Shown here: piece by piece, positions 7,848 to 53,039 of the stretch
How the letters are laid out: every line of letters begins with the position of its first letter
Numbering within the stretch: the stretch's first letter is position 1
From: Acidimicrobiia bacterium
GTDB taxonomy: Bacteria; Actinomycetota; Acidimicrobiia; Spongiisociales; ZC4RG35
Direction of reading: 5' to 3'
Assembly (NCBI GenBank): GCA_965203555.1
Contig: CBDBCY010000004.1
Span: 2,026,007-2,090,006, forward strand
DNA: 64,000 bases
Notes under the pieces: model-generated
The model's input: the letters and a program-made list of their open reading frames with translations, nothing else
Databases searched by the model: none
Told to the model about the DNA's origin: nothing
Translations under genes and position numbers: made by a program

Positions 7848-7922
7848 GCAATTTCAAACCCACACGGGAGCCTCCGACCTCCCTTGCCAACGGCCTTTAG
7901 GAGCGAAAGGTATGGAAAGCCA

Positions 7923-10384: not shown

Positions 10385-10392
10385 GAGGAACC

Positions 10393-12597: not shown

Positions 12598-12640
12598 CCT
12601 TCCATGAACAGCTGATCGCATAGGGAAACGGTCGCAAGAG

Positions 12641-22340: not shown

Positions 22341-23287
22341 CTAGCGGTAGCCGCCGCCTCGCCGGAGGCTGTCGAGCGTTACGGCGATGATCAGTATGGC
22401 GCCGCGGACTACCGACTGCCAGTAGATCTGCACTTGCAGGAGGATCAGTCCGTTCTGGACGACCCCGATTATCAACAGTCCCAGGAGGGTTCCCAAAAGG
22501 CCTCCCCGTCCTCCGCTCAGGGCGATGCCGCCCAGCAGTACTGCGGCGATGATGTCCAACTCGGCGCCGTTCAGGGCGCTTGGCAGGGCCGTTCCGCTCT
22601 GGGAAGTGAGCATCAGACCCGCCAACCCCGCCAGGCAGGCCTGGGCCACGTAGGTCCAGCCTCGCAGGCGGTCGACCCTGATGCCGACGTTGCGGCAAGC
22701 TTCGCTGTTTCCGCCCACGGCGTAGAGGTGATTGCCTGCCACGGTGAATCGCATGAAGCACATTCCCAGCACCACCACCGCCAGGAACAACCAGACGGTT
22801 ATGGGGGCTCCCAGCCAGGACCCTCTTCCCAGTTCGCTCCACGCGTTGACCCCGATCACGATGTTGTCGCCGCCCGTGGAAACGAAGGCCAAGCCCCGAT
22901 AGAAGAGCAGGGTTCCCAGGGTGGCGATGATCGGGTTGATTCTGAACTTGACGATCAACAGGGCATTGAACGCGCCCAGCACTCCTGCGGCGGCTACTCC
23001 CAACACACCAACCAGGACGCTGTTGACGTCCAGGGTGATCAGGCTGGCAGTGACCATACCCGCCACTGCCGCCACTGCCGCCATGGACAGGTCCAATCCT
23101 CCGGCGATCATCACCACCGTCAGACCGATAGCGATCAGACCTCTGATAGAAATGGCCTGTCCGATATTGATGAAGTTGCGGGTCGTGAAGAAAAACTCGG
23201 ACTGCCAACTGAATAGGGCAATCATCAACAACAGGGTGATGAGCAGACCGATCAGCGTCCAGTTGTCCTGCCTCTTGAAAACCGAGA

Positions 23288-23291
<4 letters not shown>
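22341..23291 (-). CDS. Sugar ABC transporter permease (RbsC-like)
   Basis: MISVFKRQDNWTLIGLLITLLLMIALF... with a polytopic profile. The start at 23291 overlaps the ATPase stop (ATGA). Confidence 0.85.
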
Positions 23292-24061
<770 letters not shown>

Positions 24062-24089
24062 ACCTCTCTACCGATAAGGAAGGGAGGTA

Positions 24090-24122
24090 CTCGGCGTACG
24101 AACCGGGGCTCGAAACGCCGAG
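24090..24122 (-). other. Intercistronic stem-loop (8-bp perfect stem CTCGGCGT/ACGCCGAG, 17-nt loop) between the binding-protein and ATPase genes
   Basis: It lies in the 85-bp gap of the minus-strand operon. Such hairpins commonly stabilise the upstream binding-protein transcript segment. Confidence 0.35.
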
Positions 24123-24146
24123 TCCTCTTTTGTTAGTTGGCTGTCT

Positions 24147-26180
24147 CTATCCGGGATAGAGGTCGAAGACGTTGTCCCGGGTTACGGGTGAGACCGAGGG
24201 TATTAGCCGTTCGGGAACGGTCTTTCCTTCGATCAGGTCGACGATGGCCGGCACCAGGTAGGTCCCGTAGCGCTCGGGGAAGTAGGAGATGGTGGCTTTG
24301 AACACAGACTCCTCGTCAGAGCGCTCCCGCAAATCCACCAGCGCCTCGTCGGAGGCGCCCAGGCTGGCAGCGGCCGCGTGACCCAGGTAGCCACTCTGCT
24401 CCAAAGCCAGCGCGCAGTCCACGCCGGGCTGGTCGCTGTGGCCGAAGCACAGCACGTGCTGTGCGCCGGGGTTGGCAGTCGCCCAGGTGGTCACGTTGGG
24501 AAGGGTGTCGGTCAGGCCCTCGGTGGGGATGTCGTGGATGTTCTCGTCCGGGATGTCGAACGATTCCCGCACGCCGTCTCGGGCGCCGTCGGCGCGGGCC
24601 TTGTGGACCGGCACATCCGGAGTCCACACCAACAGCAGATGGGTGTCCTCGGGCGCCCAACCCTGCTCTTGGGCGAAGCCGGCCAGATATCGGCCGGCCT
24701 CCAGCGCCGCGTTGTAGTTGTCCGGGCCGAAGGCCACGCATCCGGGGTGGGGTCCGTCGTAGGAGACACATGGAATCCCGGCGTCGTGGAAGATGCCGGC
24801 GATCAGTTCTTCGGTGCCGGCGATCCAGTTGGCGAAGATCACTCCGTCAACCTCTTGGGTTACCAGCAGGTTGGAGCACTCCACGGTCCGCTCCTGGTCG
24901 TAGGCGTTGTCGCAGTAGACGATCTCCACGCCCATCTCGGCGGCGATGGCGTTGATGTTGTCGGTCACGCTGTCCGTAAACGGGATACCCGACAGGCCGT
25001 CGCCGTAACCGATCCTGAACGCTCCGGAAGCTTCTCGAATCACGGCTTCGTACTCATCCTCCTCAGCCATGGCTGCTTCGTCCAGTTCGCCTCCCGGATA
25101 CAGTTCCTCGACGTTGTCACGGGTGACAGGCTCCACCGAGGGGATGATCCTCTCGGGCAGGTCGGTGCGGTCTTCAATGAGATCGACGATGATGGGCACC
25201 AGATACTGTCCGTAACGCTCGGGGAAGTATGAGATAGTGGCCTTGAACACAGACTCGTCATTGCCACGCTCGCGCAGCTCCACGAGGGCTTCAGTGGATG
25301 CACCGGTTCCCGCGGCCGCGGCGTTGCCCAAGAAGCCGTTCTGTTCCAGGGCCAATCCGCAGTCGACGCCGGGCTGGTCGCTGTGGCCGAAGCACAGCAC
25401 ATGCTTGGCATCGGGGTTGGCGATCGACCAGGTGGTCACGTTGGGCAGTGTGTCGGTCAGGCCCTCGGTGGGAATGTCGTGGATGTTCTCGTCCGGGATG
25501 TTGAACGACTCCCGCACGCCGTCGGTGGCGCCGTCGGCCCGAGCCTTGTGGACCGGCACGTCCGGGGTCCACACGAGCAGCAGCTCAGTCTCTTCGGGCG
25601 CCCATCCCTGCTCAAGGGCGTACTGCGCCAGGAAGCGACCGGCGGCTACTCCGGCCTCGTAGTTGTCGGGGCCGAAGGCCACGCATCCGGGGTGGGGGCC
25701 GTCGTAGGAGACGCATGGAATCCCGGCATCGTGGAAGATATTGGAGATCAGTTCTTCGGTGCCGGCGATCCAGTTGGCGAAGATCACTCCGTCGACTTGT
25801 TGGGTTACCAGCAGGTTGGAGCATTCCACGGTCCGCTCCTGGTCGTAGGCGTTGTCGCAGTAGACGATCTCCACGCCCATCTCGGCGGCGATGGCGTTGA
25901 TGTTGTCGGTCACGCTGTCGGTAAATGGAATTCCCGACAGTCCGTCACCGTAACCGATCTTCCACGGTTGTTCGGCCGGGCGGATCACGGCTTCGTAGGG
26001 GCCGGAAGGCGCCTCTGGCTCCTCCTCCATTACCTCATCTTCGGGGGCCTCTTCAACCGCGGCGGCCGTGGTCTCCGGGGCGGCGGTGGTGCCAGGAGCC
26101 TCATCCTCGTCTCCCCCGCAGGCGGCCACCAATAGGGCAATGACCGCCACTCCAACTATCAGCTTGCGTGACATTCTCAA
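24147..26180 (-). CDS. ABC transporter substrate-binding lipoprotein with an internal, diverged tandem duplication of the binding domain
   Basis: MRMSRKLIVGVAVIALLVAAC lipobox. Two approximately 315-aa halves are about 85-90% identical (...IGYGDGLSGIPFTDSVTDNINAIAAEMGVEIVYCDNAYDQERTVECSNLLVTQ... appears twice). At the DNA level, blocks of 20-36 nt are identical about 950 bp apart. Confidence 0.8.
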   Translation of the reverse strand: MRMSRKLIVGVAVIALLVAACGGDEDEAPGTTAAPETTAAAVEEAPEDEVMEEEPEAPSGPYEAVIRPAEQPWKIGYGDGLSGIPFTDSVTDNINAIAAEMGVEIVYCDNAYDQERTVECSNLLVTQQVDGVIFANWIAGTEELISNIFHDAGIPCVSYDGPHPGCVAFGPDNYEAGVAAGRFLAQYALEQGWAPEETELLLVWTPDVPVHKARADGATDGVRESFNIPDENIHDIPTEGLTDTLPNVTTWSIANPDAKHVLCFGHSDQPGVDCGLALEQNGFLGNAAAAGTGASTEALVELRERGNDESVFKATISYFPERYGQYLVPIIVDLIEDRTDLPERIIPSVEPVTRDNVEELYPGGELDEAAMAEEDEYEAVIREASGAFRIGYGDGLSGIPFTDSVTDNINAIAAEMGVEIVYCDNAYDQERTVECSNLLVTQEVDGVIFANWIAGTEELIAGIFHDAGIPCVSYDGPHPGCVAFGPDNYNAALEAGRYLAGFAQEQGWAPEDTHLLLVWTPDVPVHKARADGARDGVRESFDIPDENIHDIPTEGLTDTLPNVTTWATANPGAQHVLCFGHSDQPGVDCALALEQSGYLGHAAAASLGASDEALVDLRERSDEESVFKATISYFPERYGTYLVPAIVDLIEGKTVPERLIPSVSPVTRDNVFDLYPG

Positions 26181-26327: not shown

Positions 26328-27627
26328 CTATTTTGGCCGCGAAATGCCTTCGGCATATTCGACCATGCTGGCGTTGACGGGATCTTCAAATTGAAATTCA
26401 CCAGGTTGCAGAGTGGCGACATCAACAGGCTGTCCTCCCCGAATTACCTCCCGCACCCGGCGAATGTGGCTTATGTCAGAGAGGGGGTTTCCCTCCGTAA
26501 TGAGAAGATCGGCCGCCTTCCCCTCCGCGAGAGTGCCGGTGAGGTGGTGCACGCCGAGGCGGCGACTTCCTTCCCGGGTGGCAGCCGTGAGGACTTGCGC
26601 CGGTGTGAGCCCGGACTTTGTCAACATCTGCAATTCGTCGTGGAGGCTGAAACCGGGGATCAAGTATGGCCAGGGCGCGTCGGTCCCCACGACGATGGGC
26701 ACGCCGGCTTCATAGAACTTGGGGATGACCCTTTGGATCTCTGCAACCGCCGCCATTCGGCCCCGGGATCCTTGCGGATCGTGCCGGTGGGGGAAGGCAT
26801 CCCAGCACTCACGAATCTTGTCGGGCACCCACCGCAGCCGCGGATCGGGCCGGGAGGCGAAGTGGCTGAGACGAGCCAGGCGATCCCAGACGATGACAGT
26901 GGGACATAGCGCCGTGTTCGCCTCGATCAGTGCTTTCGTTATGTCCTCCAGATCAGCCAGATGGGTGCCGTCGAGGGGGTGAATGATCCCGCTCAGGTGC
27001 TGAAGTTCGGCCACGCCCGCCCCGGCGGCTTCCAGCGCGTTCACCTCTCCCAGGTGGGCGACTACCGGCACCCCGTTTCTTCTCCCCGCTGCCACGGCCG
27101 CCTTGACCTGCTCCAGGTCCAGGTGAACGTAGAGCTTGATCTCGTTTACCCCGGCGGCGGCCAGCAGGTCGATCTTGGCGGCCACCGCCTCGGGATCGGC
27201 GTGGCCTTCTCCGAGGCGAGGCCAGTTGACGTGCTCACCGTCCAGAACCGGGCCGCAGCAGCGCACCCGGGGAGTCGGCCGGGGGTCGGCCGCAAGTCGG
27301 CTACGCAGCCCCAGTATCCAGTCAAGGTCGTTGCCGATGTCCCGCACCGTGGTCACACCGGCAGCCAGGAGAGCGGGAACCATCCACGAGGCCATGTGAA
27401 TGTGGGCATCGATCAGCCCGGGCATGAGGGTGCATCCCGGAAAGACCATACGGTCGACGTCACCTGGCAGGGTCCTGGCATCCGCCACTCCTTCGATCTT
27501 GCTCCCTGATATCACCAGGGCCTTCCCCGATTGAGGCTCGGAATCCGGTGGATTCCACACCAGGTCTGGAACCAGCGCCAAGCGCGGTGAGCGTGGGTGT
27601 TGGGAGGGAGGAGATCGATGTTGCATG
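26328..27627 (-). CDS. Metal-dependent amidohydrolase family protein
   Basis: PGLIDAHIHM (the HxH metal motif), VVAHLGE and VGTDAPW segments. The track ORF extends to 28265, but the first approximately 210 aa are low-complexity read-through. The start is ATG 27627 or more likely GTG 27515 (MISGSKIEG...), where codon bias begins. Confidence 0.75.
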
Positions 27628-27707: not shown

Positions 27708-28487
27708 ATGACTGACGACCAACTCTCCTTGGGGGCGGGACTCTCGGGGCGCGGGGTGATAGTCACCGGCGCAGCCAGCGGGATCGGACGAGCGACTGCT
27801 CGTCTCGCCGCGGCTTGCGGGGCCCGGGTGTGTGGGGTGGACCTGAACGGTCCGGCCTTGCGGGCGGAGAAGGAGCAATGGGACGATCCCGGTCGTCATC
27901 TGGCAGTGGAGATCGACTTGACCGGCGACGATGCTCCTCACACGGTGGTTGAGACCGTGCTGGAGGAGTTCGGCGACCTGTGGGGACTGGTCCACTGCGC
28001 GGGAGTGCTGGTCCGCCGATCCAGCCCTGCCGAGGTGACCCGACAGGAATGGGATCTCCAGCACAGCGTGAACCTGAAAGCCTCCTTCTTCATCAACCAG
28101 GCAGTGGGCGAGGCGCTGAAAGCCCGCGGCGGGGGTGGGCGTATGATCACTCTCAGTTCGCAAGGGTGGTGGACGGGCGGAAGCCATGGTGCGGTGGTCT
28201 ATTCCGCTTCGAAGGGGGGCATCGTCTCCATGTGCCGCGGTCTGTCCACCTCTTACGCTCCCCACGGGATCATGGTGAACTCCATCGCGCCCGGGGTGGT
28301 GGACACCCCCATGCTGGGGATTGGACTAACTGAGGCCGATCTCGAGGCGATCGCCGCCTCCTGCCCCATGGGAAGATTGGCGAGGCCTGAGGAGATCGCC
28401 CAGGTTGCGGTGTTCCTGCTGTCCGCCCATGCCAGCTACATCTCGGCCGCCACCATCAATGTCAGCGGTGGTCTGCTCTTTTACTGA
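27708..28487 (+). CDS. Short-chain dehydrogenase/reductase (SDR)
   Basis: TGAASGIGRATA Rossmann motif and the YSASKGG catalytic motif; 259 aa. It is a paralog of the partial SDR at 63433. Confidence 0.85.
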   Translation: MTDDQLSLGAGLSGRGVIVTGAASGIGRATARLAAACGARVCGVDLNGPALRAEKEQWDDPGRHLAVEIDLTGDDAPHTVVETVLEEFGDLWGLVHCAGVLVRRSSPAEVTRQEWDLQHSVNLKASFFINQAVGEALKARGGGGRMITLSSQGWWTGGSHGAVVYSASKGGIVSMCRGLSTSYAPHGIMVNSIAPGVVDTPMLGIGLTEADLEAIAASCPMGRLARPEEIAQVAVFLLSAHASYISAATINVSGGLLFY

Positions 28488-28600
28488 TCCGGTCGTCGGC
28501 CAACCGACAAATACATCAGCAGGGGAGGACCAACCTGGGATTCTTCCCTATAGTCGGGGCTGTTGGATTACAGATAGAGGACAAGTCAAGGAGGGCACTC

Positions 28601-30061
28601 ATTACTGCTAAAAACACAAGTTTACGTGGAGGGGTAGGCCGGACCGACATAACCCCGCCCGTTCCCGCGGACCTGGTCGGATATGTACGCCGTTGGCGGC
28701 CTGCCATCGAGGTGCGATCTCCGCTGACGGCCACCGCCTTGGTGCTGGAGTCCGAGACCGAGCGAGTGGCGATACTGGGAATAGACCTGGCCATTCTCAA
28801 CCCCGAATACGCCACCATGATCCGGGAGATGATCGCCGAAGCGATCGACACGCGCCCCGAGTCGGTACTGTTGAATGTGAGCCACACCCATGCCGGGCCG
28901 CACACCCCCGGGCGCGTGAAGCTGGGAGGCCTGCTGGATGAGATCAGGCCTTCCGAGCAGGCCTATGCGGAGATACTTCCACACCAGATGGTCTCCGCGG
29001 CCCTGATCGCTGCGGAGAACACGGTGCCGGTGAGAGTGGGTTCGACCAGCACCGAGGTGCAGGGATTGACGGTGAACCGCCGCGAGCGGGTGCAAGGCGT
29101 GGAGGGGACGGTCGGGTCGCTAAACACCATCCTGGGCTGGAATCCCGACGGTCCGATCGACCGGGATGCGGGGGTGATCAGGGTCGACCGCCAGGACGGT
29201 TCGCCCCTGGCGGTGGTGGTGAGTTTCGGCTGCCACCCGGTGGTGGTGGGGCCCGAGGACCCGGCTATCAACCCCGACTTCCCCTGGCCGCTGCGAGACG
29301 CCGTGGAAGAGGCCACCGGGGCGATGTGCGTGTTCCTGCAGGGCGCCGGTGGGAATGTCCTGCCCTTGCAGGCGTTCATACCCGACCCCGCCGCGGGGGT
29401 GGAGTTCGGCGAGAAACTGGCGGCGGAGGCGCTGCACGCCATGGCTGGCATCGAAACGTTTGAAACTGAAATCGAGCGCCATGATTACGGTTCGGTCACT
29501 CCCATCGTCCTCTACCGGGTGGTGAGGGCCGAGAACCAGCCTCCCCAGGAGTTGGCCGTGGCTTCCACCGTGGTGGACCTGCCGCTCAAGAGAGTGCCCT
29601 CGATCGAAGAAGTGCAGGCCGAGCGGGATCACTACCGAGGCAACCTGGAGAAAGCGAAAGAGGCAGGCCTCGGACCCGAGGAACTCAATCCCATCCAATA
29701 CCACATCAGCTGGGCGGAAGCGGCGATCGCCCAGTTGGAGGAGGCCCCCTATGACCGGGTCCCGGCCTTCATTCAGGCGATCAGGATTGGAGACACCGCC
29801 ATCGTTGCCATCCCCGGGGAAGCTTTTGCCGAGATCGCCCTGGCCATCAGGGACCGGTCCCCCACAGACCGGGCCAGCACTCTCTTCTCCGGATACTCCA
29901 ACGGGGTTATTTCATACCTGCCCAGCGCCGCTGAGTACCCTCATGGTGGTTACGAGGTGGACTATGCCCACCATAGTTACGGTTTGATCGAACAGGTAGC
30001 CCCCGAGACGGAGGCGATCCTGGTTGAGGCAGGAGTGGCGATGCTCGAGGAGTTGTGGTAA
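28601..30061 (+). CDS. Neutral/alkaline ceramidase-like hydrolase (ceramidase N-terminal domain family)
   Basis: The LNVSHTHAGP motif matches the GxSHTHxGP ceramidase signature. The conserved N-terminus (VGRTDITPPVPADLVGY) lies upstream of the track's GTG at 28712, and no ATG/GTG/TTG occurs in frame between 28481 and 28711. AAGGAGG (28588-28594) is followed 6 nt later by ATT 28601, so an ATT start is inferred. Confidence 0.65.
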   Translation: MTAKNTSLRGGVGRTDITPPVPADLVGYVRRWRPAIEVRSPLTATALVLESETERVAILGIDLAILNPEYATMIREMIAEAIDTRPESVLLNVSHTHAGPHTPGRVKLGGLLDEIRPSEQAYAEILPHQMVSAALIAAENTVPVRVGSTSTEVQGLTVNRRERVQGVEGTVGSLNTILGWNPDGPIDRDAGVIRVDRQDGSPLAVVVSFGCHPVVVGPEDPAINPDFPWPLRDAVEEATGAMCVFLQGAGGNVLPLQAFIPDPAAGVEFGEKLAAEALHAMAGIETFETEIERHDYGSVTPIVLYRVVRAENQPPQELAVASTVVDLPLKRVPSIEEVQAERDHYRGNLEKAKEAGLGPEELNPIQYHISWAEAAIAQLEEAPYDRVPAFIQAIRIGDTAIVAIPGEAFAEIALAIRDRSPTDRASTLFSGYSNGVISYLPSAAEYPHGGYEVDYAHHSYGLIEQVAPETEAILVEAGVAMLEELW

Positions 30062-31080
30062 TGGTTCGGATGCGGATGAACCAGGCGGTGGCTGCCGCCC
30101 TGGGTGATGAGATGCGCGAAGACCCCAGCGTGGTGGTGTTCGGGGAAGACGTGGCGGCCGCCGGAGGGCCGTTCAAGACTTCGGACGGGCTGTTGGAGGA
30201 GTTCGGGCCCCTACGGGTTCGGGACACTCCCATCTCCGAGATGGGGTTCCTCGGCATGGCCGTAGGCGCCGCGGCCTCCGGTCTTCGCCCGGTGGCCGAA
30301 ATCATGTTTATCGAGTTCTTGGGGGTGGCGCTCGACCAGGTGGTGACGGAAGCTGCCAAATTCCACTTCCTTTCGAACGGGGTGTTCACATGCCCGATGG
30401 TGGTGCGGGCTTCGATCGGCGCCGGCTTGGGTTTCGGGTGCCAGCACTCTCAGACGTTTGAGAACTGGATGAGTCATGCCCCTGGGCTGAAGATGGCGGT
30501 CGTGTCCGGACCCCAATCCGCCTACGGGTTAATGCGATCGGCCATCCGGGATCCCAATCCGGTGGTGGTGCTGGAACCGCGGGCTCTCTACGGTGGCCGC
30601 GCCCAGGTGACTATCGGGGAGGAGGGGATCATTCCGCTGGGGGAAATCGCCAGGGTCCGGGAAGGCGACGACGTGACCATCATCACCGCAGGGGCGATGC
30701 TGCGGGTGGCCATGGCCGCCGCCAAGGCTTCGGATGACTGGTCGGCGGAGGTGATCGACCTTCAAACTCTTATCCCCTGGGATCGTGAGGGAGTCGTTTC
30801 GGCAGTGCGGCGGACCGGTCGGTTGGTGATCGTGGAGGAAAGCCCCTACACCTCCGGTTGGGGGACGGAAATCTCCTCCTACGTCGGCTCGCGTTTGTTC
30901 GGCGAACTCAGGGCGCCGGTGCTTCGGGTCACATGCCCCGATGTTCCCGTGCCGTTCGGGAGAGAACTGGAGTTGCGCTACATGCCGAACAAGGAGTACG
31001 TAACAGAGCAGATCGATCAACTGATGGCCACCGGCCGGGTACCCGACCCCTGGTGGGTGGGAGAAGGGAGCAGCGTCTGA
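30061..31080 (+). CDS. 2-oxoacid (pyruvate/acetoin/branched-chain) dehydrogenase E1 component, beta subunit
   Basis: Transketolase-like beta subunit (VVVFGEDV..GGPFKTSDGL, RDTPISEMGF). The TAATG overlap with the upstream ceramidase-like gene places the start at 30061. It precedes the alpha subunit. Confidence 0.85.
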   Translation: MVRMRMNQAVAAALGDEMREDPSVVVFGEDVAAAGGPFKTSDGLLEEFGPLRVRDTPISEMGFLGMAVGAAASGLRPVAEIMFIEFLGVALDQVVTEAAKFHFLSNGVFTCPMVVRASIGAGLGFGCQHSQTFENWMSHAPGLKMAVVSGPQSAYGLMRSAIRDPNPVVVLEPRALYGGRAQVTIGEEGIIPLGEIARVREGDDVTIITAGAMLRVAMAAAKASDDWSAEVIDLQTLIPWDREGVVSAVRRTGRLVIVEESPYTSGWGTEISSYVGSRLFGELRAPVLRVTCPDVPVPFGRELELRYMPNKEYVTEQIDQLMATGRVPDPWWVGEGSSV

Positions 31081-32072
31081 TGGGCGACGGAACGAAGATG
31101 GAACGCCGTTTGGCTTTGGCTGACGACCGGGTGGCGCGCTACGAGCGGATGGTGGAGATACGCGCTTTCGAGGATCGGGTGCAGGGCCTCTTTGCCGAGG
31201 GACTGGTGCATGGCACTACTCATACCGCCCAGGGACAGGAAGCGGTGGCGGTGGGCATTGCCGCCGTGGCTCGCACCACCGATACGGTCACCTGCACCTA
31301 CCGGGGACATGGCATGGGATTGGCCCTCGGAATGACCCCTGAGTTGATCCTGGGAGAGATCATGGGTCGGGAGATGGGATGCATCGGCGGCATCGCCGGT
31401 TCCATGCATCTCGTCGACCGGGAACTGGGCCTGCTTCCTACTTTCGCCATCATCGGCGCCGGTATTCCGGTGGCGGCGGGGGCGGCTCTGACCGCCCAGG
31501 TGAAGGGAACCGATGATGTGGCGATCGGAGTGTTCGGCGACGGGGCGTCCAATATCGGCGCCTTCCATGAAGGTCTGAACCTGGCCGCTATCTGGAATCT
31601 GCCGGTGGTGTTCATCTGCGAGAACAACCAGTACGGCGAGTACAGCCGGATCAACCTGACCACGCCCATCGACGATCTGGCCGACCGGGCCGTCTCCTAC
31701 GGGATCCCTGGAGTCATGGTGGATGGGCAAGATCCCGACAAGACGGTGGTGGCGGTGAGCGATGCTCTGGAGAGGGCGCGGTCCGGCGAAGGTCCGACCC
31801 TGCTCGAGATGAAGACCTACCGTTACGCCGGGCACTCCCGGGCCGACAAGGCCGAGTACCGACCCGAGGGCGAGTTCGAGCGCTGGTACCAGCGGGATCC
31901 GATCAACACCTTCCGGGCAAGACTGGAATCAGAGGGCCTGCTGGCCGAAGGGCAGGCTGCCGAAATCGACCGGCAGGTGGCAGCCCGCATAGAGGCGGCG
32001 GTGGAGACCGTGAAAACAAGTCCCCCTGCCGGTGTCGATGCGATGTTCCGGAACATCTACGCGCCCGCATAG
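31080..32072 (+). CDS. 2-oxoacid dehydrogenase E1 component, alpha subunit (TPP-binding)
   Basis: TPP motif GDGASNIG...NN, YRGHGMG and the phosphorylation-loop-like region YRYAGHS. The ATG overlaps the beta stop (TGATG). Confidence 0.85.
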   Translation: MGDGTKMERRLALADDRVARYERMVEIRAFEDRVQGLFAEGLVHGTTHTAQGQEAVAVGIAAVARTTDTVTCTYRGHGMGLALGMTPELILGEIMGREMGCIGGIAGSMHLVDRELGLLPTFAIIGAGIPVAAGAALTAQVKGTDDVAIGVFGDGASNIGAFHEGLNLAAIWNLPVVFICENNQYGEYSRINLTTPIDDLADRAVSYGIPGVMVDGQDPDKTVVAVSDALERARSGEGPTLLEMKTYRYAGHSRADKAEYRPEGEFERWYQRDPINTFRARLESEGLLAEGQAAEIDRQVAARIEAAVETVKTSPPAGVDAMFRNIYAPA

Positions 32073-32089
32073 AAAGGATGTACTAACCG

Positions 32090-32326
32090 ATGCAGTTTGA
32101 GGTGAAGATGCCCAGGCTGGGCGAGACAGTGGACGAAGTGGTGCTTCTGGAGTGGATGGTCGAGGTGGGCGACGAGGTGGAGGAGGACACCGAACTTGCC
32201 TTGGTCGAAACTGACAAGGTGGAGACCGAGGTGCCTTCTCCCGTGGCGGGAACCGTGATCGACATACTGGTGGAAGAGGACGCCGAAGTCGTCACCGGAG
32301 AGGTGATCTGCGTCATTGAGACGTAG
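32090..32326 (+). CDS. Stand-alone lipoyl (biotin/lipoyl attachment) domain protein, 78 aa
   Basis: MPRLGETVDEVVLLEWMVEVGDEV...ETDKVETEVPSPVAGTV is an E2-type lipoyl domain with the lipoyl-lysine in ETDKV. No catalytic acyltransferase domain follows. Confidence 0.75.
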   Translation: MQFEVKMPRLGETVDEVVLLEWMVEVGDEVEEDTELALVETDKVETEVPSPVAGTVIDILVEEDAEVVTGEVICVIET

Positions 32327-32450: not shown

Positions 32451-32608
32451 TGGCCCCTAAAGGCCGATTAGGGCGCCGGGGAGGGCGAATTCAACCCGGT
32501 CGGCGTGGAAAAAACCACCGTTGGCGCTCCGAAATTCCGCTCTGTGGGAATAGCATGAGGAGTGGCTAGTTGTCAAATCAGTGGACAACATTGTGGAAGG
32601 AGGTGGAA

Positions 32609-33928
32609 ATGGAAGGTTTAGATACCTATTTCCGAATCTCAGAGCGCGGTTCCTCGGTAGGCACCGAGGTCCGCGCGGGCATCACCACATTCCTGGTGAT
32701 GGCCTATATATTGTTCGTAAACGCCTTGATTCTCGGCGACGCGGGTCTCGATCCTGCTGCCGTGGCAGCCGGGACGGCGCTGGTAGCCGCCATCATGACG
32801 ATCGCGATGGGGGTTTTCTCCAACTACCCGATCGCCATGGCGGCCGGTCTCGGGCTCAACGCAGTGGTGGCCTACAGCCTGACGGCCCAGGGCCTCTCGA
32901 TAGAGGGAGCAATGGGCGTCATAGTTTGGGAGGGTGTCATAGTCACCGTCCTCGTCTTGTTTGGCCTGCGGGAAGCCGTGATGGCAGCTATACCGACCAG
33001 CCTCAAGTACTCGATCGGGGTGGGCATAGGCCTCTTCATCCTGTTCATCGGGTTGGTCAACGGCGGGCTGGTCCACGGAGAAGGGGGCACGATCGTAGAG
33101 TTCGTGTTTCCCACCGAAGCCGGTCAGGGGGTGACCTTGATCGGGGTACTGATCGGTGTGGTTCTGGTGGCGCGCAAGGTCAAGGGGGCGATGATCATCA
33201 CGATCGTGGCAACCACCGTCGTGGCCCTGATTGCAGGGGTTGCCAGCGTGCCGGACAGTATCGCGGCATCCGTGAGCCTCGAGACCCTCTGGGGCTTCGA
33301 CCTCGGCAACTCGTTTGCGGAACTCGGCTTCCTGTCAGCGATCTTGGCAATCTTCACGCTGATGCTTGCCGACTTCTTCGATACGATGGGCACCGCCACT
33401 GCCATCGTCGAGCAGGCAGGATTGACCGATGAGGAAGGCAAGATCCCTCGTCTCAAAAGCCTCCTGCTGGTGGACTCGCTCGGCGCCGCGCTCGGCGGCG
33501 TGGCCGGAGTCAGCTCGAACACGAGCTACATCGAGAGCTCGGCGGGGGTGGCAGAAGGAGGAAAGACCGGTCTCACGTCCGTGGTCACGGGGATACTCTT
33601 CCTGATCGCCATTGTCCTGTCGCCGCTGGCCGGGATCGTCCCGGCACAGGCGACTGCACCGGTGCTGATCCTCATCGGGTTCCTCATGGTCGGGTTGCTC
33701 AAGCACATCGACTTTACGGACATGGAAGAAGGATTGCCGGCGCTGCTGGCCATCATTCTCATGCCCTTGACGTACTCGATCACAGTCGGGATAGCGGCCG
33801 GGTTTGTGACGCACACGCTGATCAAGGTGGTGAGGGGCAAGTCGAGCGAGATTCACGTTTTGATGTGGATAGTCTCGATTGCCAGCCTGGTCTACTTTGC
33901 CAGCGACTGGATCGAGCTGTTCATCTAG
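32609..33928 (+). CDS. Purine (adenine/guanine/hypoxanthine) permease, NCS2/AzgA (COG2252) family
   Basis: GGAAGGAGG followed by ATG 32609, then MEGLDTYFRISERGSSVGTEVRAGITTFLVMAYI, which is the characteristic AzgA/PbuG N-terminus. Polytopic profile. Confidence 0.85.
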   Translation: MEGLDTYFRISERGSSVGTEVRAGITTFLVMAYILFVNALILGDAGLDPAAVAAGTALVAAIMTIAMGVFSNYPIAMAAGLGLNAVVAYSLTAQGLSIEGAMGVIVWEGVIVTVLVLFGLREAVMAAIPTSLKYSIGVGIGLFILFIGLVNGGLVHGEGGTIVEFVFPTEAGQGVTLIGVLIGVVLVARKVKGAMIITIVATTVVALIAGVASVPDSIAASVSLETLWGFDLGNSFAELGFLSAILAIFTLMLADFFDTMGTATAIVEQAGLTDEEGKIPRLKSLLLVDSLGAALGGVAGVSSNTSYIESSAGVAEGGKTGLTSVVTGILFLIAIVLSPLAGIVPAQATAPVLILIGFLMVGLLKHIDFTDMEEGLPALLAIILMPLTYSITVGIAAGFVTHTLIKVVRGKSSEIHVLMWIVSIASLVYFASDWIELFI

Positions 33929-34059
33929 CCCCGTCCGGTTAGTTATATGTACGAGAGAGCGCTTCCCGGCGCTCTCTCGTATTTCACATGCCGTGTATCC
34001 ACCAGTAGCTGTATACAACGTTCCGGCAAATAGCGGACCTGCCAAAGGAGAACCTGGGA

Positions 34060-36640: not shown

Positions 36641-37732
36641 GTGGGCACCAACCAATCCCCGCTAAAAGTTGCCGTAATCGGTGCCGGTTGGTGGGCGGTG
36701 GAGAACCACCTTCCCGTGCTGGCGTCCCGTCCCGACGTGGAAATCCGGGCTGTCTGTCGCAAGGGCGCTGCGGAAGTACAAGCGGTAGCAGAACGGTTCG
36801 GCGCGCCGGTGGCGACCGAAGATCATGAACTCCTGCCCTGGGACGAGCTGGATGCGGTGGTGGTTTCATCGCCGCACAGCCTTCACCACGAGCACACCAT
36901 GGCCGCCCTGGACCAGGGACTGCATGTGATGTGCGAAAAGCCGCTGGCGATCACTGGCGCAGATGCCTTCGATATGGTTACTAGGGCGGACGAACAGGGG
37001 TTGGTGTTACTTGTTCCGCACGGATGGCAGTTCTTTCCCCAGGCTGCGGTTGCCCGTCAATGGATCAAAGCAGGTCGCATCGGCCGTTTGGAGCATGTCG
37101 TCGCCCAGATGGCGTCTCCCGCTCGGGGCCTTTTTTCCGGCGAAGAGGACTCTATCCCAGGCGCGGAGAGCCCACCCGAGCCATCCACCTGGGTGGGGAA
37201 GGAGGGCGGGTACGCCTACGGGCAACTGAGCCACCTCTACTCATTGGTGTTCTGGCTGACCGGCTTGGTTCCCACCGAGGTGATGGGGGCAGTCAGTCCC
37301 GGCCCGGCAGGAAGCGACATGTATGACGCCTTTCTGTCTACCACCCGCCAGGGTCCTCTCATCTCTGTGTCCGGAGGAGCGGGCGTGCCGACCTCCCAGC
37401 GGCATCACATGGAGGTGCGGGTATTCGGAACTGAAGGAGTGGTGATCGTGGACCTGGAGCGGGACCGCATAGAGGTGGTCCGTGAGGACGGAGACGACTA
37501 CTCCTTTCCCCTGATGAGAGGCGCGGCCATCTATCCGGGGACGCTACCGGTGCACGCCTTCTGCGATCTGGCGTTGGGCTACCTCGACGCCGTAAACCAC
37601 GGCGATGCGGTTGCGTCCGCCCTTGGCATTGCGGTGATCGAAGCGGCTCTTCGCTCTGCCCGCACCCGCCGCTCGGAGCCGGTTTCTGCTGCGCTCAGTG
37701 CAGCAGAAGCAAAGGGGATAAGACTGGATTAG
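36641..37732 (+). CDS. Gfo/Idh/MocA family NAD(P)-dependent oxidoreductase
   Basis: N-terminal Rossmann KVAVIGAGWWAVENHLP and the Gfo/Idh/MocA C-terminal domain. Confidence 0.85.
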   Translation: MGTNQSPLKVAVIGAGWWAVENHLPVLASRPDVEIRAVCRKGAAEVQAVAERFGAPVATEDHELLPWDELDAVVVSSPHSLHHEHTMAALDQGLHVMCEKPLAITGADAFDMVTRADEQGLVLLVPHGWQFFPQAAVARQWIKAGRIGRLEHVVAQMASPARGLFSGEEDSIPGAESPPEPSTWVGKEGGYAYGQLSHLYSLVFWLTGLVPTEVMGAVSPGPAGSDMYDAFLSTTRQGPLISVSGGAGVPTSQRHHMEVRVFGTEGVVIVDLERDRIEVVREDGDDYSFPLMRGAAIYPGTLPVHAFCDLALGYLDAVNHGDAVASALGIAVIEAALRSARTRRSEPVSAALSAAEAKGIRLD

Positions 37733-46846: not shown

Positions 46847-46850
46847 CTAT

Positions 46851-46869
46851 ACTATAAACTTTTTATAGT
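46851..46869. promoter_or_regulatory. AT-rich inverted repeat ACTATAAA-ctt-TTTATAGT immediately upstream of the Schlafen-like gene start
   Basis: It sits directly upstream of the TTG start in a strikingly AT-rich 40-bp patch, a candidate operator. Confidence 0.35.
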
Positions 46870-47063
46870 AGATTACACCAACCCCGTCCTTATGTGATGG
46901 TGCCTCCCAAGCCTCTATTACCTCGACGGATGGCGCCCCACATGTTCGTAACAAGCGACATCGAAGGCTCTCCCAAGGCGCCATCAGCCCTGCGAGACGG
47001 TGAAACGGTTGCTCATCACTGAACCAACTCAGGTCGATTCAGCCAGTGGGGCCAGACCGCGCT

Positions 47064-49337: not shown

Positions 49338-49351
49338 CCAGGTTATCCGGC

Positions 49352-49379
49352 CCGAAGCCGGACTCCGACCCGGGTTCGG
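49352..49379 (-). terminator. Imperfect GC-rich hairpin (CCGAAGCCGG ... CCGGGTTCGG) downstream of the isomerase gene
   Basis: It lies in the 100-bp gap between the stop at 49440 and the CotH-like start. There is one mismatch in the 10-bp stem. Confidence 0.3.
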
Positions 49380-49439
49380 CTCACCGCACGGCGCCCGGGG
49401 GAGCAGCTACCGGGGGACCCAGCTTTCAGAATAAGGGTC

Positions 49440-50300
49440 TTACCCCGAGTCGGCCAGGGCCTGGCGGATCTGGTCGCGGACGTAGATCGTCTCGCACAGG
49501 TTGTCGACCCTGTCGCAGCCCCACTTCTGCATCCACACGTACTCGGCGGCTATGAAGCCCTCATAGCCCTGATCGACCAGCCGACGAACCAGACGTTGGA
49601 TGTCGATCGTTCCCTCATAGGAGATGGCCTGCATCACTTCCGGCGCCGCCTGGCGGACCTGGTGGTGCCTCGAGATCGGCAAGAGGGTCTCGATGCGCTC
49701 CTGGGAGATGCCCTGGTAGACGAAGTGGGCAAAGTCGAGGCAGACCTTCAGGCCTGGGACCTCTGCGACGAGTTGAGCCGTTACCTCGGGAGTCTCGGTG
49801 ATGGAGCCGATGTGCGGCTCGAAACCCAGTTCCAGCCCTGCGTCCTGTGCCACCTCCACCCGCCAGGCCAGCTCCTCCACCGCCAAGTCCCAGTCGCGGG
49901 CTGGATCGCGATCCTGGAATGGACAGCCCGGCAGGATGGTCAATCCCGGAGACTCCAGCACCAGGGTGAACTCGATGAAGCGGCGGAAGTCCTCTCGGGC
50001 CTTGTCGCGAACCTCGGCGGACGGATTGTTCGGCGCCGCCGACTGCACGTCGAACACTGGCCTGAAGTCGGTGATCACGATGGGAAAGACGTCCGCCACC
50101 GCCAACCCGTGATCGTCGGCCATCGCCTTTATCCGTCGGCCGACGCCGGTGGGATCGGCGATGACGTCCTCGGCGGAATTGTTGGGATTTCCCGAGAAGA
50201 CGGCAACGTCCACCGCGTCGAACTCCAGTCCCTTGATCAGGGCAAGGTTCACGTTGTACGGCAGGAGCGGGAAGGAATAGTCGGCGCAGGAAAGCCGCAT
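49440..50300 (-). CDS. Sugar phosphate isomerase/epimerase (xylose-isomerase-like TIM barrel)
   Basis: MRLSCADYSFPLL N-terminus after AAAGGAAC; Xyl-isomerase-like TIM family pattern. The track start at 50471 is an unlikely extension. Confidence 0.8.
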   Translation of the reverse strand: MRLSCADYSFPLLPYNVNLALIKGLEFDAVDVAVFSGNPNNSAEDVIADPTGVGRRIKAMADDHGLAVADVFPIVITDFRPVFDVQSAAPNNPSAEVRDKAREDFRRFIEFTLVLESPGLTILPGCPFQDRDPARDWDLAVEELAWRVEVAQDAGLELGFEPHIGSITETPEVTAQLVAEVPGLKVCLDFAHFVYQGISQERIETLLPISRHHQVRQAAPEVMQAISYEGTIDIQRLVRRLVDQGYEGFIAAEYVWMQKWGCDRVDNLCETIYVRDQIRQALADSG

Positions 50301-50356: not shown

Positions 50357-51775
50357 ATGAGTCGCCCCTCCCCAGACCGCCCACCTCGTATCGGCCAGTT
50401 GTCGGTTTACTTCGGACTCTTCGACGCGGCGATGCCCCCCGAGTTCCGCCGCGACCGGGAAGCACTGGCAAACCGCTTCACCGAGTTCCTTTCCGCCGGC
50501 GGGGACGTTGTCTTTCCCGGTCTGGTGGACTCCGAGGAAGCGGGACGCCGGGCGAATGACGTGTTTGCCGCCGAGCAGGTGGACGTGGTGGTGTTCGTTC
50601 CGGCCATGGCTGCCCCGCCCAGCTACGGCTGGGAGGCCATCTCCGGTCTGGGCATCCCGGTCATCTCGGTGGCGGCCCAGGAGCTCACCTCGATACCCGA
50701 TGTGTACACCACCGAGGAGGGGACGCAGCGGAGCACCCTGGTGGGCCTGGTGATGTTCACCAACGTCATGGCCCGGGAGGGAAAGCCCATGGTGACATTG
50801 GTGGGGCGGTTGGAGTCGGAGGAATTCGCCGCGGAGGTGGCGCAGACCGTACGGGCGGCCGCCCTGGCGAAACGCCTGCAAGGTGCGCGGGTGGGCGCCA
50901 TCGGGGCTCCGATCGGGGGGTATCTGGACGTGGAGGCCACCCCCGAGGAAGTCGACGGCTTGGGATTGGAGATGGTCTCGATATCGAGGGAGGAACTGAA
51001 CGCGGCTTTTGCCGGAGCATCCCAGGAGAGCGTTGGGGAACTCGTTGACGGTCTGCGGGACAGATTCGATACCGACCGGACTCCCGACGAGACCCTTCAG
51101 CGGTCCGCCCGGCTGGCCGTAGCCCTTCGGGACATCTGCGAACGAAACGACCTGGTGGGGGGGACGGTGAACTGCCACGGCGACATGTTCCGCTGGAACC
51201 CGGAGGTGGGGATCACGGCCTGTCTGGGGGTGACCTGTCTGACCGAGGCGGGAACGCCCCTTTCCTGCACCGGCGACCTTCCCGCCGGTATCGCCCTGGT
51301 GATCGGGAAGGCCGTGGCGGGAGGGTCCCTGTACTGCGAGGTCTACGGGGTCGACTTCGAAGGAGACTGGGTGCTGCTGGCCAACGGCGGCGAGAGCGAT
51401 GTCTCGATGGCCGATACATCCCGGCCGATCACCCTCCTGCCCGAGGACCACTACATGGGTGAGCAGGGTCCGGGCACCGCCATCGTGTTCTCCCTGCCCA
51501 CCGGGCCCGCCACCCTGCTGAGCATGTCTCCCATCGCGGGGGCCGAGGGAGGTTGGGCGTTGGTGGTGGGCGAGGGGGAGATCATCGGTTCGCGGCACGA
51601 GTCGATCGAGGGCCCCAACGGGATGTTCCGCTTCTCCTCGGGTCCTGCGTCCGAGGCCTTCCAGCGGTTCTGCAACGCCGGCGCCACTCATCACAGCGCC
51701 CTGACCCCCGGCCACCACCTCCGGACGCTTCGGATGATGGCGGAGTGGATAGGCTTCGAGGTCCGGGCGGTCTGA
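50357..51775 (+). CDS. L-arabinose/L-fucose isomerase family protein (AraA-like)
   Basis: N-terminal RIGQLSVYFGLFD, the approximately 475-aa length and the C-terminal beta-barrel domain typical of AraA/FucI-like isomerases. Divergent from the 50300 gene. Confidence 0.65.
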   Translation: MSRPSPDRPPRIGQLSVYFGLFDAAMPPEFRRDREALANRFTEFLSAGGDVVFPGLVDSEEAGRRANDVFAAEQVDVVVFVPAMAAPPSYGWEAISGLGIPVISVAAQELTSIPDVYTTEEGTQRSTLVGLVMFTNVMAREGKPMVTLVGRLESEEFAAEVAQTVRAAALAKRLQGARVGAIGAPIGGYLDVEATPEEVDGLGLEMVSISREELNAAFAGASQESVGELVDGLRDRFDTDRTPDETLQRSARLAVALRDICERNDLVGGTVNCHGDMFRWNPEVGITACLGVTCLTEAGTPLSCTGDLPAGIALVIGKAVAGGSLYCEVYGVDFEGDWVLLANGGESDVSMADTSRPITLLPEDHYMGEQGPGTAIVFSLPTGPATLLSMSPIAGAEGGWALVVGEGEIIGSRHESIEGPNGMFRFSSGPASEAFQRFCNAGATHHSALTPGHHLRTLRMMAEWIGFEVRAV

Positions 51776-51914: not shown

Positions 51915-53039
51915 ATGCGCATATCCAAAGTAACTCCAATCTCGGTCGCCTATCCCGAGCCCAACGATTCGGGCGCCACCCGGCACCTCACCTTTTGCCG
52001 GATCGAGACCACCGATGGGACCGTGGGCTGGGGAGAGGCCATAACCATGTGGCCGGAGGCGTGCCGGGCCACCGAGCAGATCATCTCAGGGATGGGAGAT
52101 CTCATCGTGGGAAGAGACGTGGCCGACAACATCGCCATCTGGCGGGAGTTGCGCAAACACGCCTGGTGGTATGGATATCGCGGCGGGATTTCTCACTTCG
52201 CCCTCTCGGCGATCGACCTGGCCCTGTGGGACCTGAAGGGGAAGGACCTGGGACAGTCGGTTCTCAAGATGATGGGCGGGCCCGTCCGGGAGTCGCTGCC
52301 GGCCATTGCCAGCACGCACGCCTTCCTGACCATGGACGAGGAGATCGAAAAACACGGACGGTGGGTGCAGGAAGACGGTTACCGGGGGGTGAAGATCGGA
52401 TTGGGCAAGGCGGGGATAACCCGCCTGGGTTACGACGCCAACCGGGACATCGAATTCATGCGCCGTCTCCGGGAGGCGGTGGGCCCCGACGCCTGGATCA
52501 TGCTGGACCGCGGCGTCAATTGCACCTGGGACCTGGAACACGCCATCCGACTGATCAACGCATGGGAAGAGTACGGATTGCGGTGGATGGAGGAGCCCTT
52601 CGAGCCCCGCGAATACATCAACTACCAGAGACTCCGAGTCGCCGTGAACACCATGCTGGCCTGGGGAGAGCGGGAGTGGGACGAGGACGGCTACCGCGAG
52701 GTGATCGGCACCGGCAACGCCGACGTGTTGGGAGTCGACCCCGGTCGCGTCGGGGGGATCACCGGCGCCCTGCGGATCATTCGCCTGGTGGAAGACGCAG
52801 GAGTGTGGTTCAACGCCCATGCGTGGAGCGGCGCACCGGTGACCGCCGCCAGCCTGGCGCTGTCGTTCAGCACGAACCGATGCCTGCTGTTCGAGTTCAA
52901 GCCCATCGAGAACCCGATGCAGCATGAACTGGTCACCAACCCCTTCGTCCATGATCGGGGCACCGTCGGCATCCCGCCGGAGCGACCCGGTCTGGGCATC
53001 GACGTGCAGGAGAAAGTGATCCAAAAGTATCGGCTGTGA
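51915..53039 (+). CDS. Enolase-superfamily enzyme, mandelate racemase/muconate lactonising (sugar-acid dehydratase-like)
   Basis: MRISKVTPISVAYPE...GWGEA capping domain, KIGLGK and the metal-ligand D/E/D pattern (MLDRG..., WMEEP, EREWDEDG). AGGAGA then ATG 51915. Confidence 0.85.
   Translation: MRISKVTPISVAYPEPNDSGATRHLTFCRIETTDGTVGWGEAITMWPEACRATEQIISGMGDLIVGRDVADNIAIWRELRKHAWWYGYRGGISHFALSAIDLALWDLKGKDLGQSVLKMMGGPVRESLPAIASTHAFLTMDEEIEKHGRWVQEDGYRGVKIGLGKAGITRLGYDANRDIEFMRRLREAVGPDAWIMLDRGVNCTWDLEHAIRLINAWEEYGLRWMEEPFEPREYINYQRLRVAVNTMLAWGEREWDEDGYREVIGTGNADVLGVDPGRVGGITGALRIIRLVEDAGVWFNAHAWSGAPVTAASLALSFSTNRCLLFEFKPIENPMQHELVTNPFVHDRGTVGIPPERPGLGIDVQEKVIQKYRL

Follow-up and report, generated by a model that had tools for sequence, protein, structure and literature searches.

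Why should a hydrolase that resembles ceramidases be encoded together with the parts of a 2-oxoacid dehydrogenase (OADH)? This question is raised by a 64-kb stretch of DNA (hereafter, the window) from contig CBDBCY010000004.1 of an Acidimicrobiia bacterium, which carries genes for a ceramidase-like hydrolase (CER), the beta and alpha subunits of an OADH decarboxylase (E1-beta and E1-alpha) and a stand-alone lipoyl carrier protein (LIP). All coordinates are those of the whole stretch, and the genes between 27.7 and 32.3 kb are read on the + strand. We propose that together they encode a module for oxidative decarboxylation within a conserved catabolic pathway for sugar acids, possibly amino-sugar acids, and we put the probability of this reading at roughly one half.

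The four genes form one unit. CER (28601..30061, + strand, 486 aa) is followed by E1-beta (30061..31080, +, 339 aa; Pfam Transket_pyr and Transketolase_C), by the thiamine pyrophosphate-binding E1-alpha (31080..32072, +, 330 aa; Pfam E1_dh, 265 bits) and by LIP (32090..32326, +, 78 aa, with the motif VETDKV; Pfam Biotin_lipoyl, 79.7 bits). The CER stop codon TAA (30059-30061) overlaps the E1-beta ATG at 30061 as TAATG, and the E1-beta stop TGA (31078-31080) overlaps the E1-alpha ATG at 31080 as TGATG. These tight junctions are as described in an earlier note on this DNA. The spacer before the lipoyl gene, given there as 18 bp, is 17 nt, between the E1-alpha stop TAG (32070-32072) and the LIP ATG at 32090. 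The same note spoke of a hydrolase joined to a decarboxylase; CER is translationally coupled to E1-beta, but the two proteins are not fused.

The start of CER required a decision. A mechanical list of open reading frames begins the gene at a GTG at 28712, by which the conserved N-terminus GVGRTDITPP would be lost. We accept the ATT at 28601 because this codon aligns with the starts in relatives (ATG in locus L024, and ATC or ATT in nine others) and because the Shine-Dalgarno sequence AAGGAGG (28588..28594, +) lies 6 nt upstream; AAGGAGG precedes the CER start in all ten aligned relatives. The conserved non-canonical start codon suggests that translation of the operon's first gene may be deliberately low or regulated. 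A likely -10 promoter box of the operon, TATAGT (28549..28554, +), lies 47 nt upstream of the CER start; its ATAGT is kept in 11 aligned relatives while the flanks diverge. A scan for promoter and terminator consensus sequences gave no signal exceeding shuffled expectation, and the fold of the 240-nt spacer after LIP was not significant (z = -1.9).

It might be supposed that CER is a coincidental neighbour of the OADH genes. A scan with one genome per species gave 80 loci whose CER relatives have 38-95% identity; they come from sponge-associated Acidimicrobiia (the window's own lineage), Poriferisocius, Planktophila/Nanopelagicales, Dactylosporangium, Ilumatobacteraceae, Chloroflexota/Limnocylindrales and Paenibacillus contaminans. 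We counted neighbours within 10 kb of CER in the 51 species-representative loci that have at least 8 kb on both flanks. A lipoyl-domain gene is present in 41 of these 51 loci and an E1 gene in 36, and the median distance between CER and LIP is 2.3 kb over all 56 loci that contain LIP. By our own estimate, which assumes a few lipoyl genes per genome of 3-4 Mb, chance would place a lipoyl gene near CER in a few percent of cases. The linkage is therefore far above chance, and the co-occurrence of ceramidase-like, E1 and lipoyl genes that the earlier note had singled out for checking is real; its conservation refutes the view of CER as a coincidental neighbour. Nine of the 51 loci have neither LIP nor E1 nearby, including one (L171) that otherwise belongs to the same regulon.

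The layout differs among phyla. Actinomycetota have E1-beta, E1-alpha and free LIP and lack both E3 and an E2 catalytic domain in the vicinity. In Chloroflexota and their allies, free LIP stands directly beside CER, whether or not an E2 catalytic domain is present, followed by an HpcH/DUF6986 lyase and a MaoC hydratase; the gap between LIP and CER is 76-174 nt in four loci. In Dactylosporangium, HpcH and MaoC genes precede those for an SDR-family oxidoreductase and CER. Paenibacillus contaminans has an IclR gene next to the series MR_MLE, E1-alpha, E1-beta, full E2, E3, CER and SDR, in which CER overlaps the end of E3. The direct OADH neighbour of CER consequently varies by phylum: Chloroflexota have LIP or a stand-alone E2 catalytic domain at this place and Paenibacillus has E3, compared with E1-beta in the window. 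The immediate neighbour of CER on its other side in the window is also an SDR oxidoreductase (27708..28487, +; Pfam adh_short_C2, 176 bits). An SDR with 45-53% identity adjoins CER in Dactylosporangium and in loci L032, L037 and L047, and the adjacent SDR of Paenibacillus has 27%.

The 78-aa protein with its ETDKV lysine motif had been regarded in the earlier note as a free carrier, and this description fits. Its best NCBIfam matches are the lipoyl domains of E2 proteins (81 bits), versus at most 35 bits for models of biotin carboxyl carrier proteins. Orthologues occur in all lineages examined and have the VETDKV motif in common, and every version from Actinomycetota and Chloroflexota is a free protein of 76-80 aa. 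LIP is a genuine free lipoyl domain, to judge from its sequence, with the lysine as its predicted lipoylation site. We rejected the alternative of a biotin carrier, since both motif and scores favour lipoyl. LIP also fails the test for GcvH (TIGR00527, 22.9 vs a cut-off of 115.85), and its match to Pfam GCV_H is partial.

If LIP is the carrier, then E2 and E3 must be sought elsewhere. tblastn searches of the window, seeded with E. coli, Paenibacillus, Chloroflexota and Acidimicrobiia sequences, found no E2 catalytic domain, E3, LipA, LipB or AceE-type E1. No LplA was found there either, nor any E2 core or peripheral subunit-binding domain, and no Actinomycetota CER locus has an E2 catalytic core. 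The earlier note had named, as a finding that would refute it, an E2/E3 pair of the same operon in relatives; in none of 15 close relatives does an E2 or E3 gene follow the lipoyl gene, so this refutation fails. The reported absence of E2 and E3 thus stands for the window but not as a property of the system. It is a trait of the gene arrangement in Actinomycetota, because E2 catalytic domains occur at the loci of Chloroflexota and of a marine lineage (L088 and L169), and Paenibacillus has both E2 and E3. In at least 11 loci of Chloroflexota and allies, a stand-alone E2 catalytic domain of 234-235 aa with an intact DHR..DG motif lies beside free LIP. The loci with this split E2 are L041, L045, L046, L049 (9244-9948), L054, L057, L059, L060, L062, L068 and L069, and their E2 proteins have no lipoyl or subunit-binding domain.

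The marine lineage has a stand-alone E2 catalytic domain of 248 aa beside E1-beta, E1-alpha and LIP (12058-12804 on the - strand of L088; 10001-10747 in L169), which appears genuine. Its identity to the catalytic domain found in ordinary E2 proteins of Acidimicrobiales is 55-60%, and this likeness makes it plausible that a housekeeping E2 acts in trans in the window's organism. Most probably, both E2 and E3 are supplied in trans in this lineage. In L088 and L169 the E2 gene also adjoins genes of a corrinoid-methyltransferase type (URO-D/MtaA-like, B12-binding, RACo and pterin-binding) and an Iso_dh gene. Acidimicrobiia carry an ordinary LipB-LipA pair beside their housekeeping E2. A further candidate for a stand-alone E2 catalytic domain in Acidimicrobiia (P0152) was rejected as an artefact of a frameshifted housekeeping AceE-Lpd-E2-LipB-LipA cluster. 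Such a cluster is seen in L168 (Acidimicrobiia contig_25624, 7783-10732), with Lpd and E2 in pieces, apparently through frameshifts in a long-read assembly. Fragments of this kind pass for "stand-alone E2 catalytic domains" in protein databases.

The two E1 subunits have intact catalytic motifs: GDG...NN and YR.aGHS are invariant in E1-alpha, and DTPISE and QHSQ of E1-beta align to the E1-beta of T. thermophilus (1um9_B). Among solved structures, human pyruvate dehydrogenase (PDH) E1-alpha is nearest to the alpha subunit, and the E1 of a Thermus 2-oxoacid dehydrogenase is nearest to the beta subunit. E1-alpha scores 322.2 with the NCBIfam model for PDH E1-alpha (TIGR03182; cut-off 393.85) and E1-beta 312.8 with PRK09212 (cut-off 321). 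An exact look-up of the E1-alpha sequence returned no record.

The beta-then-alpha order had been called unusual, and it does mark a distinct clade. Among metagenome matches to the E1-alpha query, those with 54-72% identity all have beta before alpha together with a free LIP, wherever the contig allows this to be seen (13 loci), with an exception in gene order in L095 (LIP, E1-beta, E1-alpha). Matches of at most 51% identity are all alpha-then-beta, often followed by a full E2. We define the clade by an E1-alpha at least about 54% identical, beta-then-alpha order, a free lipoyl gene of about 78 aa and a sugar-acid neighbourhood, and the E1 of the window has all four of these features. The neighbours of beta-alpha-LIP loci are MR_MLE, SDR, DAP_DH_C, CoA_transf_3, LacI, HpcH, PTE and sometimes CER. 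CER is paired with two E1 clades, the beta-alpha clade in Actinomycetota and alpha-beta proteins of 42-47% identity in Paenibacillus and L073, which argues for a functional rather than an inherited linkage. A plasmid collection contained no member of the beta-alpha clade (best match 48%).

What kind of hydrolase is CER? The family models give a divided answer. Pfam Ceramidase_alk gives 38.6 bits against a cut-off of 32.1, covering only the N-terminal part (positions 4-209 of 509), and the NCBIfam ceramidase equivalog NF041649 gives 19.8 against a cut-off of 1200. A profile search with CER matched the neutral ceramidases 4wgk and 2zws. An AlphaFold2 (AF2) model of CER (pLDDT 92.5) retrieves the same two structures with Foldseek (E ~1e-27, TMq 0.65, 15-19% identity); no other PDB fold is convincing, the next best having a TMq of at most 0.15, and the target-normalised TM score against the ceramidases is only about 0.5. 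We are confident that the model represents the catalytic-domain fold of neutral ceramidases. CER residues H95, H97, R160, H212, E407, Y439 and Y451 are invariant across 64 homologues and align to His97, His99, Arg160, His204, Glu411, Tyr448 and Tyr460 of the Pseudomonas aeruginosa ceramidase, which we take to be zinc ligands and catalytic residues. With its 486 aa, CER lacks the C-terminal Ig-like domain of bona fide neutral ceramidases, and it has no secretion signal, as its N-terminus enters the first strand directly with no hydrophobic leader. CER is probably an active cytoplasmic zinc amidohydrolase of the same pathway as its neighbours.

The short CER-like family is very large, with 5,468 clusters at 50% identity and E<=1e-30. 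Among the best 150 of its 27,631 representatives, there is no fusion with LIP or E1, and three are tandem CER-CER proteins of 880-952 aa. The plasmid collection contained only distant CER-like genes (25-30% identity), which stand in amino-sugar clusters beside NagA-like amidohydrolases, without lipoyl genes. Freshwater loci of Planktophila/Nanopelagicales have a second, divergent CER paralogue with 28-29% identity and no Pfam match, convergent with or adjoining CER (L052, 11428-12891 on the - strand; also L056, L063, L065, L067, L071, L072 and L077).

The genomic context of CER points away from lipids. No sphingolipid-metabolism genes were recognised among the annotated CER neighbours, and because the protein is also cytoplasmic, we set a role in sphingolipid metabolism aside; given the carbohydrate context, ceramide is an unlikely substrate. 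The annotated neighbourhoods are carbohydrate or sugar-acid catabolic islands. Genes for uptake, regulation and oxidation recur in them (Peripla_BP_4 ABC transporters, LacI, GFO/IDH/MocA, AP_endonuc_2 and SDRs), as do one or two enolase-superfamily dehydratases per neighbourhood, lactonases of the PTE, Amidohydro_2 or SGL families, RhaM and isomerase-like proteins. Acyl-processing genes are also recurrent (family III CoA-transferase, CitE/HpcH lyase, MaoC hydratase and PrpD-like proteins), and so are genes for amine or amide chemistry (DAP_DH_C of the amine-dehydrogenase family, a DMFase-like amidase with SBP_bac_5, and Amidohydro_1); a P450 is found occasionally. Of the 46 E1-bearing loci (the window is not among them), 30 have an MR_MLE dehydratase gene no more than 10 kb away. 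In L090, L091, L094, L097, L114 and L076 such a gene comes directly after LIP or before E1. The window carries the same gene set split in two, with the downstream part 20-30 kb from the module, and its genes are 50-54% identical to the Dactylosporangium and Poriferisocius cluster genes, with lower values (34-38%) for the GFO/IDH/MocA and AP_endonuc_2-like genes. NCBIfam gave no equivalog-level match for any pathway enzyme among the neighbours.

From these observations, we propose the following route. A sugar would be taken up and oxidised to its acid by GFO and SDR enzymes and lactonases, and an enolase-superfamily dehydratase would convert the acid to a 2-keto-3-deoxy acid. An alpha2beta2 E1 would decarboxylate this 2-oxo acid and reductively acylate the free 78-aa LIP. 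The acyl group could then be passed to CoA by an E2 catalytic domain, which is encoded beside the module in Chloroflexota, the marine lineage and Paenibacillus and would be borrowed from a housekeeping E2 in this actinobacterial lineage; alternatively, the acyl group might leave the carrier as the free acid, to be activated again by the CoA-transferase of family III. The resulting 3-hydroxyacyl thioester would be processed by the MaoC hydratase and a lyase of CitE/HpcH type to acetyl-CoA and an aldehyde, and a housekeeping E3 would re-oxidise the carrier. The distributions of two gene types support the scheme, because they are complementary: CoA_transf_3 is all but confined to Actinomycetota loci that bear E1 (14 of 15), and a stand-alone or fused E2 catalytic domain occurs in Chloroflexota, in L088 and L169 and in Paenibacillus. 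The frequent position of MR_MLE next to E1 or LIP supports it as well. The earlier idea of a route joining an amide hydrolase, E1 and a lipoyl carrier thus survives as regards the conserved unit and the free carrier, but its setting is a sugar-acid regulon, and the free-LIP layout is not without precedent.

Within this scheme, CER most likely removes an N-acyl group from an amino-sugar-type intermediate. We favour this role because its residues are of the amidase type, because the clusters encode enzymes for amines and amides, and because of the settings in which distant homologues occur. An action of CER on the lipoyl arm itself is less likely. The constant adjacency of CER and LIP nevertheless keeps a carrier-directed role alive, most strikingly in the Chloroflexota loci that lack both E1 and an E2 catalytic domain, so that CER may either feed E1 or act on the carrier.

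Several observations weigh against the proposed route. Chloroflexota CER loci contain LIP, CER, the lyase and the hydratase but no E1 within 10 kb, and some of them (L042, L044 and L048) also lack an E2 catalytic domain; a simple transfer from E1 to LIP to E2 does not explain these loci. When E1 is taken as the starting point, only about 3-4 of 9 long beta-alpha-LIP loci have CER on their contig, which implies a tie at the level of the pathway and not an obligatory one. The substrate of E1 is deduced from its neighbours only, and the adjacent SDR would be just as compatible with cleavage of an alpha-hydroxy-ketone sugar in the manner of acetoin. Decarboxylation before carbon-carbon cleavage has no obvious advantage over known aldolase routes. 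Finally, full-text literature searches (ceramidase, lipoyl, E1, sugar acid, unattached lipoyl domain) found no description of this gene combination, and one match, PMC9239090, proved irrelevant.

How far do other explanations account for the same facts? E1 might be an ordinary paralogue of pyruvate or acetoin dehydrogenase that disposes of pyruvate or a hydroxy-ketone from the pathway. CER would then be one more hydrolase of the pathway, unconnected in any special way with E1 or LIP, and its substrate might be, e.g., a lactone or a 2,4-diketo-3-deoxy acid. Pyruvate is indeed a product of non-phosphorylative deoxy-sugar routes, and the adjacent SDR is of the butanediol-dehydrogenase type. Likewise, the best family matches of E1 are PDH models, the structure nearest to its alpha subunit is a human PDH E1, and contigs with such an E1 often lack CER. 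However, its scores are under both PDH equivalog cut-offs, gene order and the free LIP set the clade apart, and CER is adjacent or coupled to OADH parts in three phyla and with two E1 clades. In addition, E1-only paralogues of Haloferax are reported, in a passage of PMC8305020, to exclude pyruvate and 2-oxoglutarate. We regard this explanation as unlikely, though it has to be taken seriously. We are more doubtful about a scheme in which the acyl group stays tethered to LIP. In that case, MaoC and the enlarged CitE/HpcH-DUF6986 lyase would act on acyl-S-lipoyl-LIP, and CER would be an off-loading hydrolase or transferase that replaces the E2 core. LIP is indeed the OADH component that is nearly always next to CER, in Chloroflexota regardless of the E2 catalytic domain and with no E1 nearby, and Actinomycetota loci lack any E2 catalytic domain.

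Known enzymes speak for this scheme as well. Lyases of the CitE type act on carrier-bound thioesters, as in citrate lyase, where citryl-ACP stays tethered, and the AcoC protein of acetoin dehydrogenase systems has a catalytic domain of hydrolase fold. Against this stand the residues that CER shares with ceramidases, which are those of an amidase and of no known thioesterase. CER is also kept beside a full E2 and E3 in Paenibacillus and beside stand-alone E2 catalytic domains elsewhere, so it is no simple E2 substitute. The nine loci with neither LIP nor E1 nearby, L171 among them, speak in the same direction, as does the lack of a CER-LIP fusion in the best 150 family representatives. If true, this scheme would reveal a new kind of enzyme for off-loading or servicing the lipoyl arm, and a CoA-sparing lipoyl chemistry not previously described. 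Still more remote from our expectation is an action of CER on the lipoyl-lysine amide, as a lipoamidase or, in reverse, as a lipoyl or octanoyl amidotransferase that charges or regulates LIP. Lipoyl-lysine is an N-acyl amide, the bond type that ceramidases cleave, and neutral ceramidases also run the reverse condensation. The residues aligned to the amidase machinery of ceramidases are fully conserved, LIP and CER are tightly adjacent, and LipB, LplA and LipA were not found in the 64-kb window. Nevertheless, we know of no precedent for the ceramidase fold acting on proteins, and the very large CER-like family has distant members in amino-sugar clusters without lipoyl genes. Furthermore, Acidimicrobiia already have their ordinary LipB-LipA pair, and a catabolic operon has no obvious need for such an enzyme.

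We now turn to the remaining neighbours of the module. Upstream, and divergent from it, lies a hydrolase gene of the Amidohydro_1 family (26328..27500, - strand, start approximate; Pfam 78.5 bits), kept at this position in 9 close relatives. Beyond it is a sugar-type ABC transporter (22341..26180, -; Pfam BPD_transp_2, ABC_tran, Peripla_BP_4 and Peripla_BP_6). It consists of a permease (22341-23387, -; BPD_transp_2), an ATPase (23288-24061, -; ABC_tran) and a fused double binding protein of 677 aa (24147-26180, -; Peripla_BP_4 with Peripla_BP_6) that is 85-90% identical in close relatives. Downstream, a GFO/IDH/MocA oxidoreductase (36641..37732, +; Pfam) is 34-38% identical to the copies in L081 and L083. 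An AP_endonuc_2-like sugar isomerase or dehydratase (49440..50300, -) matches a Dactylosporangium cluster gene by tblastn (34.5%, E 5e-48), and a protein like L-arabinose/fucose isomerases (50357..51775, +; Pfam Arabinose_Iso_C) is 51.5% identical to the product of a gene divergent from CER in L083. The MR_MLE enolase-superfamily acid-sugar dehydratase (51915..53039, +) is 53% identical to that of Dactylosporangium and 52% to the L082 copy; in NCBIfam it comes closest to gluconate/galactonate, rhamnonate and galactarate dehydratases, without reaching the cut-off of any.

At the far end of the window, Pfam identifies an SBP_bac_5 binding protein (58763-60724, -), a DMFase-like amidase (60940-63396, +) and a second SDR (63443 to the window end at 64000, +). 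All three also occur in linkage with CER in Dactylosporangium (L081, 16500-21434) and in Acidimicrobiaceae (L171, 15109-19414). The recurrence of a DMFase-like amidase, an SBP_bac_5/Opp-type transporter and an SDR in three distant Actinomycetota hints at a nitrogen-containing glycoconjugate as the substrate. The amidase of the window also bears an N-terminal ConA-like lectin domain.

Two further elements lie between the module and the downstream half of the regulon. A conserved leader at 32520-32610 (AATAGCATGAGGAGTGGC...GTTGTC...ACAAC...GGAAGGAGGTGG) precedes genes for a permease of the purine/xanthine family and an adenosine deaminase (32609-35076), which appear to be a separate unit. The leader has no match in Rfam, nor did an Rfam search of the whole window give any; it could be a promoter, an operator or an unrecognised leader element. 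At 45344-49406, on the - strand, a 781-aa CotH-kinase protein with a lamin-tail domain is encoded beside a regulator of the Schlafen/AlbA_2-HATPase_c_4-wHTH type. These two genes separate one half of the regulon from the other and may have been inserted there as an element.

If the proposed pathway is correct, it would be an uncharacterised and taxonomically broad carbohydrate route that uses E1 with a free lipoyl carrier in place of an E2 core. Its carriers would be sponge-symbiont Acidimicrobiia, the abundant acI/Planktophila of fresh water, soil actinomycetes, Chloroflexota and one Paenibacillus. It would offer a testable context for OADH paralogues that consist of E1 only, acknowledged as an open issue in haloarchaea in a passage of PMC8305020. 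It would do the same for lipoyl proteins and E2 catalytic domains that stand alone, and it would improve the reconstruction of metabolism in freshwater plankton and in symbionts that have not been cultured. The carbohydrate contexts of the family members studied here suggest that "neutral ceramidase", the label given by annotation pipelines to the short family with this fold, may mislead.

Of the known systems, the E1-only clusters of Haloferax, the acetoin dehydrogenase system and the actinobacterial OdhA-AceF split of E2 functions come closest to the module. Van Ooyen and Soppa (2007) reportedly described OADHC2 and OADHC3 clusters of Haloferax in which the lipoyl domain is unattached and both E2 and E3 are absent. 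These clusters of Haloferax volcanii resemble the module in their E1-alpha and E1-beta genes and, by that account, in the free lipoyl domain; they differ in being archaeal, in their alpha-beta order and in having no reported ceramidase-like partner or sugar-acid context. For oadhAB2 and oadhAB3, a passage of PMC8305020 gives the substrate as unknown, with pyruvate and 2-oxoglutarate excluded. The module resembles PDH and branched-chain keto-acid dehydrogenase in E1 fold and motifs, in the lipoyl-lysine motif and in the presumed reductive acylation. In contrast to them, its gene order is reversed, and E2 core, peripheral subunit-binding domain and E3 are all absent from the window. The neutral ceramidases of P. 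aeruginosa (CerN, 2ZWS) and human (ASAH2, 4WGK) have the fold and the positions of the His/His/Glu/Tyr zinc site and of Arg and Tyr in common with CER, but have about 650-690 aa, compared with 486 aa for CER, which stands in a cytoplasmic carbohydrate context.

The AcoA/AcoB/AcoC/AcoL system with butanediol dehydrogenase is similar in its heterotetrameric, thiamine pyrophosphate-dependent E1, a relative of PDH E1, in its SDR, which acts upstream, and in the transfer of an acyl group to a lipoyl arm. AcoC demonstrates that a domain other than a canonical E2 core can serve for off-loading. The module differs in its beta-alpha order, its free LIP, the lack of AcoL and a sugar-acid rather than acetoin context; the AcoC model NF011457 matches LIP over residues 4-77 only, with 51.5 bits versus a cut-off of 307. 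In the QncN/QncL/QncM system, which provides the glycolyl unit of quinocarcin, a ketose derived from a sugar is cleaved by an E1-like thiamine pyrophosphate enzyme, which transfers the C2 unit oxidatively to a lipoyl arm; from there, the unit passes to a carrier. Compared by description only, that system differs from the module in being biosynthetic and in having its lipoyl domain fused to an acyltransferase. Finally, the corynebacterial and mycobacterial OdhA-AceF system shows that lipoyl and E2 catalytic domains can work in trans when they reside on different proteins. There, the lipoyl domains belong to the full E2p and the orphan is the catalytic domain, fused to E1o; in the module described here, the orphan is the lipoyl domain.

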